A DNA stretch of 64,000 bases from an uncultured Porphyromonadaceae bacterium (lineage in GTDB: Bacteria; Bacteroidota; Bacteroidia; Bacteroidales; Muribaculaceae). The first letter of the stretch is position 1. The number at the start of each line of letters is the position of its first letter. Of this stretch, positions 18,947 through 45,553 are shown in pieces. The translations under genes were made by a program, and so were the position numbers. Under the pieces are notes generated by a model. The model did no database searches, was not told the origin of the DNA, and saw nothing but the letters and a program-made list of their open reading frames with translations. The stretch covers positions 830-64,829 of the forward strand of contig CALBWF010000043.1 in NCBI GenBank assembly GCA_937969265.1. Direction: 5' to 3'.

Positions 18947-19972
18947 ATGCGGCCCCGGCCTGTCGTTTTCCCTCGGACGCGGAAGAATCCTGATTTCTTG
19001 TCCCGTGCCCGCTGGCACGATTATCGCTCGCGATGCATATATATGGTGACCTTGTCGGCGGCGGAAGGCTCGCCCAGGTTTTCCGAAGTCATAGGCTGGG
19101 CCAATGCTGAGGGAATCTCAGCGGGTGTCAGGCTCCTGCCCGCAGGGGCATTGATTGAAAGGGAAATTGTTCGGTTGCCGGAACGCTACCCGGTCGTTAA
19201 GGTGCTGGCCCATTGCGTGATGTCGGACCATCTGCATATCGTTATATTCATCAAAGAACGGACAGAGACAAGTCTGCCCCGGATTGTCGCCGCCTTTGAG
19301 GCCGGGTGCACCAAAGCGTTTCGGGAAAGTTTCCCGGATTCGCGGTTGTCCCTGGCCGGAGGAAGCCTGTTTGCCAAAGGGTTCAACGACAGGATAGTGC
19401 GGGGCCGGGGAGAGGCAGATGCTTTCTGCCGGTATGTTGAGGATAATCCGAAGCGATATTATCTTCGGAAAAACCACCCCGAATATTTCGACCGCTGCCG
19501 GATTATAACGGTAAACGGTCGGGAACTGGCAGCATACGGGAATCTGTTGTTGCTCCGCCATTGTGTCAAGTGCGCGGTTAAAGTCAGCCGGTCGCTGACT
19601 CCCGAAGAGACAGTCGGCTGTGAAAGAGCCTGGAGCGAGACCATTAGGAGCAGGGGCGTGCTTGTGTCGCCGTTTATAAGTCAGGGGGAGAAAGAGGTAT
19701 TCCGCGAGGCAGTCGAAGGAGTGGCTGGCATAATCCATATTCTGCCCAATGGCTTTCCCGAGCGGTTCAAGCCTTCTGGCAGAGAGTTTGAACTTTGCGC
19801 GGCCGGGCGGTTGCTTTTAATCGCGCCTGTCGAATACGATACCAGGAGAGCAGTTGTCTCGCGGGAGCAATGCCTGGCGATGAACGAGCTGGCGGCGCTT
19901 GTCGCCGCCAACGGCCTGAGCCTGGCGGTCAGGCGGGAGCCGCGCTCTGGTTCAAACCGCGCCGCTCGCTAA
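18947..19972 (+). CDS. HUH/Y1 (IS200/IS605 TnpA / RayT-like) transposase-like protein with unassigned C-terminal extension (341 aa), copy Y1a
   Basis: HUH motif SDHLHIVIF and Tyr-helix motif FCRYVEDNPKRYY. Paralog of 30178..31167. Followed by a family palindrome. Confidence 0.8.
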   Translation: MRPRPVVFPRTRKNPDFLSRARWHDYRSRCIYMVTLSAAEGSPRFSEVIGWANAEGISAGVRLLPAGALIEREIVRLPERYPVVKVLAHCVMSDHLHIVIFIKERTETSLPRIVAAFEAGCTKAFRESFPDSRLSLAGGSLFAKGFNDRIVRGRGEADAFCRYVEDNPKRYYLRKNHPEYFDRCRIITVNGRELAAYGNLLLLRHCVKCAVKVSRSLTPEETVGCERAWSETIRSRGVLVSPFISQGEKEVFREAVEGVAGIIHILPNGFPERFKPSGREFELCAAGRLLLIAPVEYDTRRAVVSREQCLAMNELAALVAANGLSLAVRREPRSGSNRAAR

Positions 19973-19974
19973 AG
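19957..19974 (+). repeat. 18-nt partial copy of the palindrome arm (CCGCGCCGCTCGCTAAAG) covering the Y1a stop codon
   Basis: Identical to 20001..20018. Confidence 0.85.
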
Positions 19975-19999
19975 GGCAATGCTCGCCGCTAACAGCAAA

Positions 20000-20159
20000 C
20001 CCGCGCCGCTCGCTAAAGCTCGCTCCACCCGACAGGCTGCGCGTTCTTTATCCTCTTGTTTTCTCCCTCTCCCCTCCTTCTCTTCTTCTTTTTCCTCTTT
20101 CTCCTTAGCCTTTCGCGCGCAGCCTGTCGGGTGGAGCGAGCTTTAGCGAGCGGCGCGGG
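20000..20159. repeat. Foldback palindrome HP1: perfect 44-bp arms (20000-20043 / 20116-20159), 72-nt pyrimidine-rich loop
   Basis: The reverse complement of the left arm, checked base by base, equals the right arm. The loop is almost pure C/T on the + strand. Confidence 0.95.
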
Positions 20160-30177: not shown

Positions 30178-31167
30178 TTATAACGCCGCTCCGCGTACCG
30201 AAAGTGCCAGCTCTCCGGCGGCAATCTCCTCCGCGAGCCGGTTCATCGCAAGGCACGTTTCCCTCGAAACGGTCTGTCGGCGGCAGCTTGTCACGGTTGG
30301 CGAGACAATCAGAAGCCTCCCCTCGGCGCATAGGTCGAAGTCGCGGCCCGAGGGCTTGAACCGCTCCGGGAAGCCGTCAGGCACGATATGGATAACGCTC
30401 GCTCCGGCTTCCAACCCCTTGTCGCGCACGGCTTTCTCCGGTTTGCTGATGAAAGGGGAAACGATAACGCCACGCCCGCGCATAACCTCTTCCCATTCGC
30501 TGTACCGGCGCCGCGTTTCCTCTTCGGAGAATGTGCGGCTGAGCCTTACGGCGCTTGTCAGGCAGTGGCGCAGAAGGAGGAAGTTGCCGAAGGCGTTATA
30601 TTCCTTGCCGTTGATTAGCAGCGTTATGCGCCTATTGAAAAATTCCGGGCGAGTCTGTTTGAGGTAGAGCCTTCGGGGATTGTCGGCGACATAGCGGTTG
30701 AAGTTGTTGAGCTGCCCCTCTTTGTAGACAATGCGGTCGTTGAACCCCTTGGTGAAAACAGAGCCGGATTCCCGCAAAACCGGCAGGTCGGGGAAAGCCT
30801 TCTGTATCTCTTTGTCGCAAAGCTGTTTGAGGGAGCCGACGATGTGGCCGAGGTCGATGTTCGTCTTCTCCTTTACGAAGATTACGAAATGGATATGGTC
30901 CGGCATCACTACGCTGCTGAGAATGTCGGCGAACGGGTAGCGGACATGCAGTGCTGAGACGCGGGAAGCGATGATTTCTCCAACCGGGGTAGGAACAGCC
31001 CTCGCTTCCGCTCCCTGAGGCCCGATATTCCCTTCGATTCTTGAAAAGCGGGGAGCTCCCTTCGCCGCGGTAATGGTAAACATGTATATCCGGCGGCCGT
31101 AATAGTCGTTCCAGGACGCCCGCGCCAGGAAATCCGGATTTTTGCGGCTGAGGTAGGGAGAGGGCAT
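30178..31167 (-). CDS. HUH/Y1 (IS200/IS605 TnpA / RayT-like) transposase-like protein with unassigned C-terminal extension (329 aa), copy Y1b
   Basis: HUH motif PDHIHFVIF and Tyr-helix motif FNRYVADNPRRLY. Collinear with Y1a over its full length (RKNPDFL, KGFNDRIV, LLLRHC, VSPFIS, GFPERFKPSGR, CLAMN). Confidence 0.8.
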   Translation of the reverse strand: MPSPYLSRKNPDFLARASWNDYYGRRIYMFTITAAKGAPRFSRIEGNIGPQGAEARAVPTPVGEIIASRVSALHVRYPFADILSSVVMPDHIHFVIFVKEKTNIDLGHIVGSLKQLCDKEIQKAFPDLPVLRESGSVFTKGFNDRIVYKEGQLNNFNRYVADNPRRLYLKQTRPEFFNRRITLLINGKEYNAFGNFLLLRHCLTSAVRLSRTFSEEETRRRYSEWEEVMRGRGVIVSPFISKPEKAVRDKGLEAGASVIHIVPDGFPERFKPSGRDFDLCAEGRLLIVSPTVTSCRRQTVSRETCLAMNRLAEEIAAGELALSVRGAAL

Positions 31168-31237
31168 TAGAGGAGAAAATTAATGGTTTATAAGGGATTT
31201 TGGGAGATTATCGGAGGGAATTTTTCCGGGGAAGCTT

Positions 31238-31386
31238 GGAAGCCGCTCGCCTTCGGCTCGCTCCACCCGACATTCGGGGACAGGAGTTACGGGAGCCTGG
31301 CGAATAGGCAAGGAAGAGAAAGGGAGAAGGAAGGGGAACAGGCGTATTGGATGTTGGGTGGAGCGAGCCGAAGGCGAGCGGCTTCC
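31238..31386. repeat. Foldback palindrome HP2: 36-bp arms (31238-31273 / 31351-31386, 35/36 paired), 77-nt loop purine-rich on + strand
   Basis: Reverse-complement check done by hand. Shares GCCGCTCGC and GCTCGCTCCACCCGACA with the HP1 arms. Confidence 0.95.
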
Positions 31387-31440
31387 TATTGCCGTGCTTC
31401 CTATTGCCGTGCTTCCTATTGCCGTGCTTCCTATTGTTGT
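31381..31440 (+). repeat. 15-bp tandem repeat GCTTCCTATTGCCGT, 3 perfect copies plus 1 degenerate
   Basis: Read directly. The first unit overlaps the end of the HP2 right arm. Confidence 0.95.
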
Positions 31441-37800: not shown

Positions 37801-37922
37801 AATCCTTAGAGGACGTATCATAACGGCCCATTTGGGTCGTCGCTTGAAGGGTTCGTCCTCGGTCACAATCTTAAGATTGCTCCCATCGGCCTCACCTCCA
37901 AGCTCCTACCATCTGGACCATT

Positions 37923-37978
37923 CTGATAGCGCCCTCCCATCCGGGTACTAACGCAGAGCGTATCAGAATTTTGATACA
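37923..37978 (+). repeat. Intergenic element E, copy 1 (CTGATAGCGCCCTCCCATCCGGGTAC ... GTATCAGAATTTTGATACA)
   Basis: Matches 57747..57816 (25/26 nt block plus an 18-nt palindromic block). Confidence 0.85.
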
Positions 37979-40819: not shown

Positions 40820-43800
40820 TCAGAAGCGGACTTTCCAGGCGCGGTTGGCGGCGCGGACGATGTAGAGCCCGGCGGGGAGGGCGATTTCCTCCTCGGTGTA
40901 GGAGGGAGCGAGGTAAACCATCCTGCCGTCGGCGGAATAGACTTCTATGCGCGCCCCGCAAGCGTTCCTTACGATATAGCCGTCCGGGGTCTTGACAAGA
41001 GTGTAAGCCGAAGGAGCGTTGACGGTATCGATACCGCTCATGTCCTTGACGGTAAGGACGCAGGTCGCTTCCGCGTTGCCGTCGGCGCTGCGGACAGTGA
41101 TGGTCGCGGTGCCCTCTTTCAGGCCGGTTACCAGGCCATCGCCGTCAACATCAGCCACGCTGACATCCGAGCTTTCCCAAACCAGCGCCTGATTGGTGGC
41201 GTTCGCGGGGAGTATGGTCGCCGACAGTTGCAGCGTTGAGCCGACATTCACCTCAGCTTCGGTGGCATTCAACTCTATCGCGGCAACCAATACGGCTGAC
41301 ATCTCCTCAACGAAGAAGAAATCCTTCCATTGCGGAGCGGCTCTATATTCGTCGCTGCTCTCTGCGGGAACATAAAGCGCACATTCCCACTTGTTTATGT
41401 CATCGAGCGCCTGGTTGCCGCAGACAGGAGGAACGATGGAATAGGAATAATACTTGGTAAGCCCGGTGCAGTCGGAGAACGCCTCGTCGCCGATGCTCTC
41501 TACGTTATAGCCTGCCGAGAAATAGTCAAGCGAAGAGCAGCCCGAGAAAGCCCATTTGCCAATCTTCTTGACCCCGTTGCCGATTTTCAGCGAGTTAAGA
41601 CCCGAGCAGCCGTAAAATTCGTTATCGTAAATCTCGGTTTCCGCATCCGTTATCTCCACTGTCCGCAGCGAGGTGTTGCGGTAGAACGGCGAATAACCAT
41701 AATTGGAACCAGTCTTATATGACAGCTTGCGACCGATATACACCTCGTCAAGCGGGCAGTCGGCAAACAGCGGGCTTGAGCCGTTGGAACCCAATGTTAT
41801 ATAAGCGGTATTAATAGATGAAGCTCCTTTTAGCCAAATATCGGAGACGACAACCCGGTCTTGCCCGGAATTACTTGACGAATCTTTGGTGTAAGAGAGG
41901 TACAAGGTTATTTGGCCGGCCTCGGAGAATTGATAACGAAAACTGTCTGATTTCTTGCCGCTTGCCTTTATTGCCTCCGAGCCATTGATTTTCGCAATGA
42001 AGAAATCATATCCGGATTCACTATCTACCGAATAATTGAATGTTAGAACGGCTCCAGCTTTCGCATCAAGCAGGTATTCCTGATGTGATTCAGAATTGTC
42101 TGCGTGGTTTGATGACGTCCAATCGGGATATTGTATGTTTGTCGGTTCTTCGATTTCGGGTGCTTCCTTATCATCGTCTTCAATAGAGATGTCGGAGAGC
42201 GACGAGCAACCCTCAAATGCGTAATCTGAGATGGAGGTTACATTGTTCGGTATCGAAATTGATTCAAGCGAGGAGCATCCCGAAAAGACTTTTGTAGGCA
42301 GCGAGGGGAAGCCTGCCCCGAGAGTGGCGCTTTTCAACGCGCTACACCCCTGGAATGCTGAAGCGCCCAAAGAAGTTACGGAATTAGGAATAACGATTTC
42401 GGGAATTGCTGAGCATCCGTAAAATGCGTTTTCGGAGATTCCGGTAACCTCATTTCCAAGTTTTACTTGGTTCAGCGCTTTATCATTGTAAAACGCGCAT
42501 TCTCCGATATTTCCCTTGTTCTCGATAGTTGCGGTTTGCAATGAAGTGCATCCGTAGAAAGAAGAGTTTCCTATATTTCCTGTGTTTTTGATGGTAGCCG
42601 TCTGCAAGGCGGTACAACCATAGAAAGCGGAGCTGCCGATACTTCCATTATTTGCAAGAGTGACAGTTTGCAGACTTTCGCATCCTTGGAAAACATCCTC
42701 TCCGATATTACCATTGTTGGAAACATTAGCAGTCAGAATCTTGCTGCAATTACGAAAAGCATCATTGCCAATATCCCCTTTGTTTGAAGCTGTTAGCGAT
42801 GTTAAATGCCCGCAATTATAGAAAGCGTAACTTCCTACGAAGCCAATATTAGAAAGGGTTAGCGATTCAATGTTGCTGTTGTTGTAAAATGAGTATTGTC
42901 GGATATTATTTACCGTCATCTCAATGCCTTTGTTGGTAACTTTATCAGAAATGACTGGTGTGGTATAAGTGGGGTTATAAAGGCAGTCTACGACATCGCA
43001 AGTGCGCTCCGAAGGGCTGACGGGGACATAAATTGTTCCATCAACTGTGAATTTGGAGCTGAGGAACTGATATTTGATTTGATTGTTCAGGTTGTATTGG
43101 TCATTAGACACATAGTTTACATATGCGTTAACTTCTCCATAACCGGATGGAGGGGTATTCCCTAACCAAAAAGCCTTGGCGATTCGATGGTTATTGCTTG
43201 TAAAGGCGTATGATCCGATAGAAAGAAGTCCTGAGCCGAATGTAACAGATTTTAATCTATTTTCATAAAAGGAGCGTTCACCGATAGAGGTGACGGAGTT
43301 GGGGATTGTTAGACCCTGAATCTTGCTGCCGTTGTACAGGAAGTAATCGGGAATCTTGGTGACATTGTCGCCAATCGTCAGGGAAGAGATAGACGAGGGG
43401 AAAGCGGGATAATAAGAAGAGCCGCAAGTTGCGCAGTTTGTAGCATTGAAAGCGAGGGATTCGAGGGAGGAGCAGTCCCTAAAAGCGTAGCCCCCGATGG
43501 AGGTTACGGCGTTGGGGATTACGACGGATGTCAGGGAGGAGCATCCGTCGAAAGCGTAGTCGCCGATGGAGGTTACGGCGTTGGGGATTTCGACGGAGGC
43601 CAGAGAGAAACAGCCGAGGAAAGCGCTTTTGCCGATGGAGGTTACGGCGTTGGGAATTACGACGGAGGCCAGGGAGGTGCAGTGGGCGAAAGCGCCGAAG
43701 CCGATGGAGGTTATTGTGTTTGGTATAGTATAGCCATCCGAAAGGGTCATTGGAGCGTAATATACCTTTGTGATGTCTTTATCATAAATTACCCCTGCTT

Positions 43801-44647
43801 CATCTATAAGGCAATCAGAGGGGTATGCGATTTTGAAACCAGAACTGAATGGGTTACTTATTGAAGAAGGATATGCGCTCTTTTTAAGGCCGCTACAGCC
43901 GTAGAAAGCGTCGTCGCCGATGGAGGTTACGGAGTTGGGGATTACGACGGATGCCAGGGAGGAGCAGCCGTAGAAAGCGTCGTTGCCGATGGATGTTACG
44001 GAGTTGGGGATTTCTACGGAGGCCAGGGAGGCGCAGTTACGGAAAGCGTAGGAGCCGATGGAGGTGACAGAGTTAGGGATTGAGAGATTCTGAATCTTGC
44101 AGCCGTTGTACAGGAAGTAATCGGGAATCTTGGTGACATTGTCGCCAATCGTCAGGGAAGAGATAGACGAGGGGAAAGCGGGATAATAAGAAGAGCCGCA
44201 AGTTGCGCAGTTTGTAGCATTGAAAGCGAGGGATTCGAGGGAGGAGCAGCCGTAGAAAGCGTAGTTGCCGATGGATGTTACGGAGTTGGGGATTTCTACG
44301 GATGTGAGGGATGAGCAGTAGTAGAAAGCGTCGTTGCCGATGGATGTCACGGAGTTGGGGATTACGACGGAGGCCAGGGAGGCGCAGTATCTGAAAGCGT
44401 CGTGGCCGATGAAGGTTACGGCGTAGGTTTTGCCGTTATATTCAACTGAAGATGGGATTATGACAGAGCCGCTATATTCATTTGAGTATGAGTTATAAGA
44501 GCTGCCGCGAAAAGTTACGGCGGCGGTGTTGTCGGATGAGGAGGTGATGTCGTAGTAGATGCCGTCGACTTCGAAGTCGTGGGGGGAGGCGGCGAGGGTG
44601 GCGGTGAGGGCGAAGGGGAGGAGGAGTTTTCGCAAGAGGGGTGACAT
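40820..44647 (-). CDS. BspA-type leucine-rich-repeat surface protein with Big_2-like domain and T9SS C-terminal sorting domain (1275 aa)
   Basis: Start set at MSPLLRKLLLPFALTATLAASP (signal peptide). Dozens of IPNSVTSIG..AF..C.SL repeats. Big_2-like LNATEAEVNVGSTLQLSATILPANATNQALVWESSDVSVADV. CTD ending LYIVRAANRAWKVRF. Confidence 0.88.
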   Translation of the reverse strand: MSPLLRKLLLPFALTATLAASPHDFEVDGIYYDITSSSDNTAAVTFRGSSYNSYSNEYSGSVIIPSSVEYNGKTYAVTFIGHDAFRYCASLASVVIPNSVTSIGNDAFYYCSSLTSVEIPNSVTSIGNYAFYGCSSLESLAFNATNCATCGSSYYPAFPSSISSLTIGDNVTKIPDYFLYNGCKIQNLSIPNSVTSIGSYAFRNCASLASVEIPNSVTSIGNDAFYGCSSLASVVIPNSVTSIGDDAFYGCSGLKKSAYPSSISNPFSSGFKIAYPSDCLIDEAGVIYDKDITKVYYAPMTLSDGYTIPNTITSIGFGAFAHCTSLASVVIPNAVTSIGKSAFLGCFSLASVEIPNAVTSIGDYAFDGCSSLTSVVIPNAVTSIGGYAFRDCSSLESLAFNATNCATCGSSYYPAFPSSISSLTIGDNVTKIPDYFLYNGSKIQGLTIPNSVTSIGERSFYENRLKSVTFGSGLLSIGSYAFTSNNHRIAKAFWLGNTPPSGYGEVNAYVNYVSNDQYNLNNQIKYQFLSSKFTVDGTIYVPVSPSERTCDVVDCLYNPTYTTPVISDKVTNKGIEMTVNNIRQYSFYNNSNIESLTLSNIGFVGSYAFYNCGHLTSLTASNKGDIGNDAFRNCSKILTANVSNNGNIGEDVFQGCESLQTVTLANNGSIGSSAFYGCTALQTATIKNTGNIGNSSFYGCTSLQTATIENKGNIGECAFYNDKALNQVKLGNEVTGISENAFYGCSAIPEIVIPNSVTSLGASAFQGCSALKSATLGAGFPSLPTKVFSGCSSLESISIPNNVTSISDYAFEGCSSLSDISIEDDDKEAPEIEEPTNIQYPDWTSSNHADNSESHQEYLLDAKAGAVLTFNYSVDSESGYDFFIAKINGSEAIKASGKKSDSFRYQFSEAGQITLYLSYTKDSSSNSGQDRVVVSDIWLKGASSINTAYITLGSNGSSPLFADCPLDEVYIGRKLSYKTGSNYGYSPFYRNTSLRTVEITDAETEIYDNEFYGCSGLNSLKIGNGVKKIGKWAFSGCSSLDYFSAGYNVESIGDEAFSDCTGLTKYYSYSIVPPVCGNQALDDINKWECALYVPAESSDEYRAAPQWKDFFFVEEMSAVLVAAIELNATEAEVNVGSTLQLSATILPANATNQALVWESSDVSVADVDGDGLVTGLKEGTATITVRSADGNAEATCVLTVKDMSGIDTVNAPSAYTLVKTPDGYIVRNACGARIEVYSADGRMVYLAPSYTEEEIALPAGLYIVRAANRAWKVRF
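43316..43475 (-). repeat. Intragenic ~159-bp direct repeat, copy 2
   Basis: Differs from 44090..44249 at a single position. Confidence 0.9.
44090..44249 (-). repeat. Intragenic ~159-bp direct repeat, copy 1
   Basis: See 43316..43475. The offset of 774 bp is in frame. Confidence 0.9.
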
Positions 44648-45057
44648 TGGGTTGGTTCGGTGCCGCGGGACTCCTCTCGTTGGCGTTGGGGGTTGGAGAC
44701 GGAAAGACGTGGGAGTCTGTACTGCTGCCGTCCCACCGTCAGAGGCTTCTCGCATTGCCTATACCCGTCGGACGGCAACGCCAGAAGCCCACGCCAGTAT
44801 ATGCAACGGACGCTTGCGGCGGGTTCCTCACGAAACGGGCCGCGGCGGATGTTACACACCAACGGGCATCTACCGTTGCTCAATCCTTGACGGGCTGGGA
44901 AATTTTGCGAGAATTTCTGACGGTCAAGAACTAAGCGTTAGTAACGCCTTTCATATTTGCCGCGGCGGGGGCGCAGGGCCTCCGGGCGGTTGTCGCATCC
45001 CTCCCGCTCGCCCACACCGAACTAACTGGCGCGGGGCGGCGTTGCGGTCTGCGTCGG

Positions 45058-45130: not shown

Positions 45131-45190
45131 GTAATCCGTGTTAATCTGTCGCATCCGTGGGGAGCTTGCGACCATAAAAATCTGTGTGTC
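45131..45190 (-). repeat. Repeat R1, truncated inverted copy B'
   Basis: The reverse complement equals the first 43 nt of copy B exactly, then continues imperfectly. Confidence 0.9.
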
Positions 45191-45194
45191 AACC

Positions 45195-45310
45195 ATTTTT
45201 ATTACGCGACCTCTCCGAGGCCGTTTTCATCCACGACCAACAAACACCGCACCTTCGCGGCTTCGCCGCTCGATACGGTGCTACAATTACGCCGCGGCTT
45301 CGCCGCTCCG
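45195..45310 (-). repeat. Structured repeat X, copy B (inverted relative to copy A)
   Basis: Block-wise homology to 40465..40580 after reverse complementing. Confidence 0.8.
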
Positions 45311-45336
45311 AAATATAGGGGATTGGATGCGTCTGA

Positions 45337-45553
45337 CACACAGATTTTTATGGTCGCAAGCTCCCCACGGATGCGACGGATAAACACTGATCTTTGAGAG
45401 GGATGCTTTCTACCACGGTCCCGCACCCTACGGGCGCTCCTCTCTGGGTCTGCCACTTCCACCGCGCCTCGCCTCTCCGAGGCTCGACACGGTGTTACTC
45501 ACGGACACGCACCCTCCGGGCGCTCCATACGGATGCGGCAGATATACACGGAT
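45337..45553 (+). repeat. Repeat R1, copy B (with internal ~85-nt duplication/insertion)
   Basis: CACACAGATTTTTATGGTCGC and CTCCCCACGGATGCGACGGATAAACAC are identical to copy A. GCACCCT(A/C)CGGGCGCTCC occurs twice. Confidence 0.9.

Follow-up and report, generated by a model that had tools for sequence, protein, structure and literature searches.

Two diverged Y1 (HUH/Tyr) proteins with a DprA-like domain and their adjoining palindromes in a Muribaculaceae genome: a probable domesticated repeat system

The window analyzed here is a 64-kb stretch of contig CALBWF010000043.1 from an uncultured Porphyromonadaceae bacterium (Muribaculaceae); loci of its relatives are designated by L-numbers. It carries two genes for Y1-type HUH/Tyr enzymes, Y1b and Y1a, each adjoining a long palindrome, with a tandem array beside the palindrome of Y1b (Table 1). 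An earlier, sequence-only reading of this DNA had described the 329-aa Y1b product as a paralog lying on the opposite strand to Y1a, collinear with it from RKNPDFL to CLAMN and identical at about half of the positions. The open reading frame (ORF) call and a tblastn match (49.8% identity over 319 aa, E = 4.7e-105) agree with that description, and Y1a is the only relative of Y1b within the window. The HUH motif reads MPDHIHFVIF in Y1b and MSDHLHIVIF in Y1a, and the Tyr motif FNRYVADNPRRLY and FCRYVEDNPKRYY, respectively. Both had been judged intact in both copies, and the key residues D90, H91 and H93 (HUH), Y159, N163, P164, and R166 prove invariant in an alignment of 27 diverse homologs. Y1a carries MSDHLH (19208-19225) where 26 of the 27 family members, including the orthologs of Y1a, have MPDH; the histidines of Y1a are intact. 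The other features of that reading, namely a foldback with 36-bp arms and a 77-nt loop placed 70 nt upstream of Y1b, its counterpart downstream of Y1a, and the 15-bp tandem array, were likewise recovered.

Table 1. Positions in the window of the two genes, the domains of Y1b, and the adjoining repeats.
Feature	Position	Strand	Remarks
Y1b gene, 329 aa, ATG start	30178..31167	minus	two-domain Y1(HUH/Tyr)-DprA-like protein; ORF call
C-terminal DprA-like (SLOG/Rossmann-like) domain of Y1b, residues ~176-325	30193..30642	minus	AlphaFold2 model and fold comparison
N-terminal Y1 HUH/Tyr domain of Y1b, residues ~20-175 (His91, His93, Tyr159)	30643..31110	minus	Foldseek and invariant residues
Spacer between palindrome and Y1b ATG, 70 nt	31168..31237	minus	probable promoter/5' untranslated region
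Y1b gene-proximal arm, one repeat unit GGAAGCCGCTCGCCTTCGGCTCGCTCCACCCGACAT	31238..31273		36 nt
Y1b loop, low complexity, CT-rich on gene sense strand	31274..31350		77 nt
Y1b gene-distal arm, inverted copy of the unit, one A/G mismatch	31351..31386		36 nt
Tandem array of GCTTCCTATTGCCGT, 3.7 copies, 100% matches	31381..31436		period 15
Y1a paralog gene, 341 aa	18947..19972	plus	two-domain architecture as in Y1b
Additional, incomplete copy of the Y1a arm (its outer 18 nt)	19957..19974		inverted repeat; Y1a stop codon lies within it
Y1a palindrome downstream of the gene, 44-nt arms (20000-20043 / 20116-20159)	20000..20159		100% complementary

Both paralogs score as members of the Pfam family Y1_Tnp (PF01797; 27.6 bits for Y1b and 32.6 bits for Y1a, cut-off 23). 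The IS200 TnpA equivalog NF033573 gives 18.2 bits against a cut-off of 55, and the best NCBIfam model is REP_Tyr_transpos (NF047646), with 47.9 and 38.8 bits for the two paralogs. The full-length AlphaFold2 model of Y1b has a predicted local distance difference test (pLDDT) score of 90.6, and its first ~175 residues match the TnpA proteins of IS608, ISDra2, and IS200 as well as the RAYT structure 4er8, all with a Foldseek probability of 1.0. The published scheme of Y1 subclasses places the Tyr motif, Y[VI]xDNPRR, with the YIxxNP motifs of class 2 (RAYT-like) and not with the Y..Q of IS200 (Quentin et al., 2018; PMC6006769). By these sequence measures the N-terminal domain of Y1b appears nearer to the RAYTs than to IS200 TnpA.

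A separate C-terminal domain was absent from the earlier reading. Modeled alone, its ~150 aa give an AlphaFold2 pLDDT of 90.8, and the top 14 fold matches in the Protein Data Bank (PDB) are all DprA or ShosA (probability 0.89-1.0, TMq 0.49-0.58, ~130 aligned columns), everything ranked below them having a probability of 0.2 or less. The DprA matches come from H. pylori, S. pneumoniae, and R. palustris, and the ShosA match is 8zva (TMq 0.58). Identification of this domain from sequence alone failed, and it was recognized by fold comparison only: a Pfam scan of 23 C-terminal domains returned no family, including PF02481 (DNA_processg_A), and the best PDB sequence match, DprA 3uqz, was not significant (E = 0.55). 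The weak alignment to 3uqz spans the GN..LL ... VS....E region, which is the Rossmann core of DprA. The domain has invariant motifs of its own, YGN..LL, VSPFIS..E, ERFKPSG, and LC..GRLL, and is predicted to be DprA-like in fold, not a member of the DprA family.

Proteins of this architecture are numerous. A profile search of 1.84 billion representatives returned 964 clusters (50% identity) at E<=1e-30, and the best 150 of the 964 match across the full two-domain length. Genome matches are mostly to metagenome-assembled genomes (MAGs) of Muribaculaceae-type and other Bacteroidales; full-length relatives occur also in Kiritimatiellia, Lentisphaerota, and Verrucomicrobiota, while relatives limited to the N-terminal domain are found in Clostridia and others. 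Where the sources name these homologs at all, they are called 'transposase' or 'RayT'. No published description of a HUH/RAYT-DprA fusion was found in the literature, and none of the 12 TnpAY1 subclasses that have been defined combines DH[IVL]H, Y[VI]xDNPRR, and a length of ~330 aa (Quentin et al., 2018; PMC6006769).

The palindromes exceed what chance would produce. A 17-mer shared by their arms, GCTCGCTCCACCCGACA, has four matches in the window where 0.39 are expected, and these are the four arms; in the 64 kb just three inverted repeats have arms that reach 20 nt or more. The arms at Y1b are 97% complementary, and the inverted repeat ends 70 nt before the ATG. Folded as single-stranded DNA, this element reaches -52.8 and -46.9 kcal/mol on its two strands (z of -10.9 and -11.3 against shuffles). 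The 15-bp array begins inside the outer end of the distal arm, and each repeat opens with the outer 5-6 nt of the arm (GGAAGC). L003 and L212 retain the portion of the 70-nt spacer next to the ATG and also have a 23-nt indel; no match to a sigma-70-type promoter was found there, the sigma-70 consensus being one that does not cover Bacteroidota. At Y1a, the loop is 72 nt long and CT-rich, L209 retains the left arm and L210 both arms, and the convergent MATE gene takes its stop codon from the right arm. The two proteins, Y1a and MATE, both end in RAAR followed by a stop, within arm sequence (19957-20159).

Several known kinds of element were considered for the palindromes and rejected. Rfam matches above the gathering threshold are to tRNAs only, and in E-value mode the palindrome gave only sub-threshold matches to microRNA precursors, of a kind that any long hairpin produces. 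Neither palindrome has a T-tract or a credible site for an intrinsic terminator or a sigma-70 promoter. Short-read contigs from five loci (L003, L205, L209, L217, L224) end inside a palindrome arm or loop beside a Y1 gene; the palindromes break assemblies and will be hidden in many MAGs.

Each arm corresponds to one unit of ~40 nt, which has the core GCTCGC-N3-5-GCTCGCTCCAC and a lineage-specific tail; the core comprises two direct GCTCGC half-sites ~10 nt apart, then TCCAC, before the variable tail begins. The unit takes the form GCTCGCT-AAA-GCTCGCTCCAC-CCGACAGG at Y1a and GCTCGCC-TTCG-GCTCGCTCCAC-CCGACAT at Y1b, and in a third paralog clade, Y1c, it is GCTCGCT-TAC-GCTCGCTCCAC followed by a variable tail. 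Each palindrome is a head-to-head doublet of the unit, with arms of 36-44 nt and a low-complexity loop of 50-124 nt. The sequence-only reading had credited each gene copy with one cognate-looking palindrome; it had missed that this is a doublet of a unit dispersed in related genomes, which makes the arrangement one of REP/RAYT or TIR/TIRYT type.

A hidden Markov model (HMM) of the unit finds the four arms and nothing else in the window, and in 6-9-kb loci of close-clade homologs it finds units solely beside the gene. Every close-clade Y1 gene with enough flanking sequence has adjoining units, so that the adjacency of gene and palindrome, whose loss in related genomes had been named as evidence against a maintained function, is retained. 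The arrangement varies: Y1c genes have an inverted unit on their upstream side and a doublet on the downstream side, while orthologous Y1a genes have the doublet downstream in the window and in L210 and upstream in L222, where a single unit overlaps the 3' end of the gene. In the loci compared, adjacency is thus conserved and the exact arrangement changes. Unit sequence co-varies with protein clade. In more distant members the palindromes differ, though they contain a recognizably related box (GGCTCACCTTCGGCTCGCCAC in L011, GCGAGCGTTGCTCGCTCAAC in L223, for example); inverted repeats are enriched 6.5-fold in the flanks of distant homologs, a weak indication given that the control includes coding DNA.

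Units also occur away from Y1 genes, on many contigs of related gut Bacteroidales. A scan of metagenomes for CCGCTCGC-N4-GCTCGCTCCAC, a pattern whose 4-nt spacer cannot match Y1b-type arms (spacer 5 nt), matched at least 120 loci, and about 30 of the matches are listed on eight contigs (~1.7 Mb, coverage 16-19x) of a single assembly, ERZ808035. The arm of Y1a is identical over 43/43 positions to dispersed units in L132, L139, and L146; the matches in ERZ808035 include exact copies of this arm and of the arm beside the Y1c gene of L004; and Y1b-type arms are present at other sites in L138 and L178 with 96-98% identity. Dispersed units are mostly single, with some A-then-B tandems, some cases of B with an inverted A, and an occasional true doublet, and their surroundings are purine-rich intergenic mosaics that also contain several further types of short repeat. 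Neither tblastn nor the family HMM detected a Y1 homolog in the at least 120 unit loci scanned. Units therefore greatly outnumber genes, as repetitive extragenic palindromic (REP) sequences outnumber RAYT genes.

The mosaics themselves contain further repeats, among them CTTCGCTCGGCTTACGCCTCGCGCACCAAG, CTTCGGGGCCGCGGCCCCTCACACCGGGA, and a GTAG-headed palindrome, GTAGGGACGCGGCGTGCCGCGTAT (L089, L111, L126, L132, L138, L146, L163, L167, and others), and their organization resembles that of bacterial interspersed mosaic elements (BIMEs). The core CCGCTCGC-N4-GCTCGCTCCAC was also seen in repeat families of soil, peat, and freshwater metagenomes that look unrelated (L092, L096, L102, L110, L112, L113, L119, L149, L158), two of these loci, L096 and L113, carrying Acido-Lenti-1 RNA hits, and in four low-GC loci (L087, L093, L129, L160); it often forms the loop of a covarying 8-bp stem.

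The two genes are old residents of their positions. In a neighbor-joining tree Y1a and Y1b form sister clades, each with orthologs from several species, and the Y1c clade adjoins them. Synonymous sites between Y1a and Y1b are saturated (proportion of synonymous differences, pS, 0.75), so their duplication must be old. Across species Y1b keeps the neighborhood SerB - MtaB - LpxL-like acyltransferase - [array + palindrome] - Y1b - TamB, Y1a keeps S41 peptidase - Y1a - convergent MatE - OPT, and Y1c keeps FdtA - FdtA - Na/H exchanger - Y1c. Ratios of nonsynonymous to synonymous substitution rates (dN/dS), obtained by the Nei-Gojobori method, are 0.090 (dS 0.18) for Y1b against a 96% identical ortholog, 0.109 (dS 2.19) against a 70% ortholog, and, for Y1a, 0.118 (dS 0.45) and 0.081 (dS 1.10) against orthologs of 90% and 85% identity. 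The sequence-only reading had argued for an old duplication, not a recent insertion sequence (IS) copy, and for a maintained, perhaps domesticated, function; it had proposed a phylogeny and dN/dS of the paralogs as the check and had named frameshifts or stop codons in homologs as the signature of decay. The tree separates the paralogs into distinct multi-species clades, dN/dS lies between 0.08 and 0.12, and the orthologs are intact and hold fixed chromosomal places, all of which sustains that view. Y1a and Y1b are thus intact and constrained, the opposite of decaying IS remnants. Few and diverged copies (50% identity), vertical inheritance seen as synteny, and purifying selection (dN/dS 0.08-0.12) are together a RAYT-like trait.

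These results bear directly on the possibility that gene and units constitute an autonomous or recently active IS, either IS200/IS605-like or a mobile TIRtron, inserted twice in the window. Such an element would account for the Pfam Y1_Tnp assignment and the name 'transposase' given to homologs by the sources, for the bracketing of Y1c genes by inverted units, and for the absence of Y1b and its palindrome from this position in relatives whose acyltransferase is ~80% identical. It would not, however, be expected to leave two copies that are 50% identical with saturated synonymous sites, each at a conserved syntenic position across species and evolving at a dN/dS of ~0.1. The units of Y1a and Y1b stand on one side of the gene only, there is no tnpB, the IS200 equivalog is scored at 18 bits against its cut-off of 55, and look-ups of contigs revealed no near-identical copies in different contexts. 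An active IS is thus considered very improbable. In the relatives with the ~80% identical acyltransferase (L218-L221), a tRNA gene (L218) or type I restriction-modification genes (L219-L221) replace Y1b and TamB; the comparison therefore does not provide a clean empty site for Y1b, and the junction downstream of the acyltransferase gene is a hotspot of rearrangement or integration.

The same synteny is relevant to a role in defence. Since ShosA (8zva, TMq 0.58) ranks with the structures that best match the C-terminal fold, the protein might be part of an anti-phage or anti-plasmid system in which the DprA-like domain serves as sensor, as in Shosta ShosA, and the HUH nuclease as effector, the repeats being incidental. 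Comparison of the protein with the PADLOC defence models gave no family at E<=1, and neither PADLOC nor PHROGs provided a meaningful match that would assign it to a known defence or phage family. Moreover, the flanking genes are of a housekeeping kind (TamB, LpxL-like acyltransferase, S41 peptidase), with no defence island or conserved partner gene, and the strict vertical synteny is unlike that of defence islands. Of the explanations weighed here this one is the least probable.

Constraint on the palindrome was assessed by comparison with a sister lineage (L212-216), in which the acyltransferase is 97% and Y1b ~96% identical to the window. Between the window and L212 the two arms show no difference in 72 positions (0/72), and the single A/G mismatch is kept in both, whereas 19 of the 77 loop positions differ, with length preserved, as do 34 of 330 third-codon positions of Y1b. 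At the third-position rate the probability of observing no arm change is ~4e-4. Retention of the mismatch argues against simple conversion of one arm by the other, and the comparison favors selection acting on the sequence of each arm. The array, by contrast with the arms, varies: 3.7 copies in the window, ~2 in L212-214 and L216, and ~1 in L215. Of 77 dispersed units, 21 have a short array no more than 60 bp away (4.7 for random positions). Because copy number varies and arrays are common near units, the 15-bp array is best regarded as typical unstable companion DNA, not as a separate functional element. A comparison of the loci among strains had been suggested by the sequence-only reading; it gives invariant arms and a variable array, the latter variation having escaped that reading.

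In another reading, the palindromes would chiefly be structural or regulatory elements of DNA or RNA, such as transcription barriers, mRNA-stabilizing hairpins, or protein-binding sites, and not substrates of the enzyme whose gene they adjoin, Y1-DprA having some other role on single-stranded DNA in repair, recombination, or replication restart. The palindromes form very stable hairpins and are intergenic or overlap 3' ends, with co-directional genes on either side at Y1b and convergent ones at Y1a, where they include both stop codons; the DprA-like fold points to single-stranded DNA and RecA biology; and the same core exists in other phyla, whose fetched loci lack a Y1-DprA gene. Lack of a T-tract means, however, that they are not canonical intrinsic terminators, and regulation alone would hardly place units beside the gene in three paralog clades at varying positions, or make unit sequence co-vary with protein clade. 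Nor would it readily explain why the sequence of the arms, and not just their pairing, is conserved with the mismatch kept. A purely structural or regulatory role is accordingly regarded as unlikely, although less so than an active IS.

Y1b and Y1a, both vertically inherited, belong to the Y1 HUH single-strand DNA transposase superfamily and are probably of the RAYT/TIRYT kind within it. Our preferred explanation, held with somewhat better than even confidence, is that they represent a REPtron- or TIRtron-like domesticated Y1 system bearing a DprA-like fusion, in which the palindrome is a REPIN-like doublet of the cognate unit. The nearest known systems are the RAYT/REPtrons (4er8; REPIN-RAYT of Pseudomonas). 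The REP of a RAYT is an imperfect hairpin of 20-40 nt with a conserved 5' tetranucleotide, GTAG. Shared with the RAYTs are the HUH/Tyr domain with its class-2 Y..NP Tyr motif, the small number of strongly diverged paralogs that are inherited vertically under purifying selection, and a gene flanked by a short repeat, often as inverted doublets, that is dispersed in related assemblies, each paralog clade having its own unit variant. Y1b differs in being about twice as long by virtue of the DprA-like domain and in falling below the NCBIfam RAYT cut-off; its units have no short hairpin and no GTAG head, with two direct GCTCGC half-sites instead; and the hosts are gut Bacteroidales (Muribaculaceae-type MAGs), with arms of 36-44 nt and loops of 50-124 nt.

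The TIRYT/TIRtron systems are RAYT-like genes associated with long inverted repeats (TIRs) that bear no relation to GTAG REPs, and some TIRs belong to moderately abundant repeat families present as single, dimeric, or grouped copies (Di Nocera et al., 2013; PMC3733652). The present loci resemble these systems in the long non-REP repeats that flank the gene, inverted on both sides at Y1c, in their presence as singles, dimers, and groups at moderate copy number, and in repeats that may extend into the gene at its 5' or its 3' end (PMC3733652). Relative to what is described there, bracketing is seen at the Y1c loci and in L222, whereas the doublets of Y1a and Y1b in the window occupy one side only; the GGGGWSAS motif of several TIR types is absent here, and a DprA-like domain is not mentioned in the sections consulted (PMC3733652).

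Resemblance to the TnpA proteins of IS200/IS605 elements (IS608, ISDra2) is confined to the N-terminal domain, for which they are the best structural matches and whose HUH/Tyr chemistry on single-stranded DNA is expected to be the same. Y1b and Y1a are not multi-copy, lack a left- and right-end hairpin pair and tnpB, have a Tyr motif other than Y..Q, and carry the extra C-terminal domain. This domain of ~150 residues shares its fold with DprA, a single-stranded DNA-binding loader of RecA (3uqz, 4ljr), and with ShosA; it differs from DprA in showing no significant sequence similarity and no PF02481 match, in the absence of the other DprA domains, and in being fused to a HUH enzyme. Enterobacterial BIMEs are similar in that units lie in intergenic mosaics with other short repeats and short tandem arrays, here in related genomes; the unit sequences and the organisms differ. 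Relative to the known kinds, then, the novelty consists of the DprA-like fusion together with units that are not hairpins.

A number of observations weigh against a REPtron- or TIRtron-like system. The best paralog score for the RAYT equivalog NF047646, 47.9 bits, is well short of its cut-off of 80 bits. Single units fold no better than shuffles (z of +0.5 to +1.5), only doublets forming hairpins, and no unit has the GTAG head, a departure from what is known of RAYT and IS200-family substrates. Dispersal is seen in related metagenome assemblies, and within the 64-kb window the units are the two doublets only. Repeats from unrelated phyla contain the core motif too, and the loci fetched from them encode no Y1-DprA protein: a 19-nt core recurs in soil and peat metagenome repeats, where it is closed as a loop by a covarying 8-bp stem. 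Among 64 distant loci, the gene flanks of only 27 contain any inverted repeat of 14 nt or longer, and some of these resemble ordinary terminators. Finally, DNA binding, cleavage, mobilization of units, and the role of the DprA-like domain are activities that we infer.

If Y1b and Y1a do belong to a domesticated system of this kind, Y1b would recognize the unit when the DNA is single-stranded, for instance on the lagging-strand template or in an extruded doublet hairpin, and the HUH-bound metal and Tyr159 would cut and rejoin it. Cutting and rejoining may occasionally copy or move units, so that the unit population is maintained, while the DprA-like domain could hold single-stranded DNA, recruit RecA, or both. 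Read-through from the acyltransferase gene into Y1b is probably curbed as well by the long hairpin that separates the two, and the 15-bp array may be slippage-prone by-product DNA at the arm boundary.

A broader possibility, which can be put forward only tentatively, is that Bacteroidales and the PVC (Planctomycetes-Verrucomicrobia-Chlamydiae) group possess domesticated HUH enzymes of a large, so far undescribed class, the Y1-DprA fusions, whose units are not hairpins but are built on the tandem GCTCGC-N4-GCTCGCTCCAC core, one that recurs in repeat families of Acidobacteria-like and other environmental genomes, and whose DprA-like domain couples HUH cleavage to capture of single-stranded DNA or to RecA-dependent recombination. 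Were this so, the class would maintain repeats by a mechanism other than classical REP/RAYT transposition. Bacterial genomes harbor long-lived 'replicators' that are inherited vertically, of which REPIN/RAYT systems are the main example; these are known chiefly from Proteobacteria and Cyanobacteria. The system proposed here would carry the principle over to gut Bacteroidales, which are abundant, and its protein has a DprA-like domain in addition, which offers a testable handle on how a single-stranded substrate is found and on a possible involvement of RecA. As regards annotation, hundreds of genes called 'transposase' or 'RayT' are two-domain proteins at fixed chromosomal positions, and the palindromes have practical effects of their own in that they break short-read assemblies and supply stop codons to neighboring genes.

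Other repeats in the window were noted in passing. At 45134-45391, an element like a miniature inverted-repeat transposable element has 58-nt terminal inverted repeats (95%) around 142 nt, and its copies in L155 and L188 (83% and 77%) make it another dispersed repeat of the lineage. A non-coding element of ~140 bp (37808-37948) has 86-94% identical copies at six places in other Bacteroidales loci (L188 twice, L090, L155, L159, and L138); it matches no Rfam family and may represent either a small RNA not yet known or a mobile element. Between 43464 and 44411, three arrays with a 69-bp period (2.6-3.6 copies, 81-84% matches) lie within a 1311-aa ORF on the minus strand (40820..44755), which probably encodes a repeat-containing surface protein.

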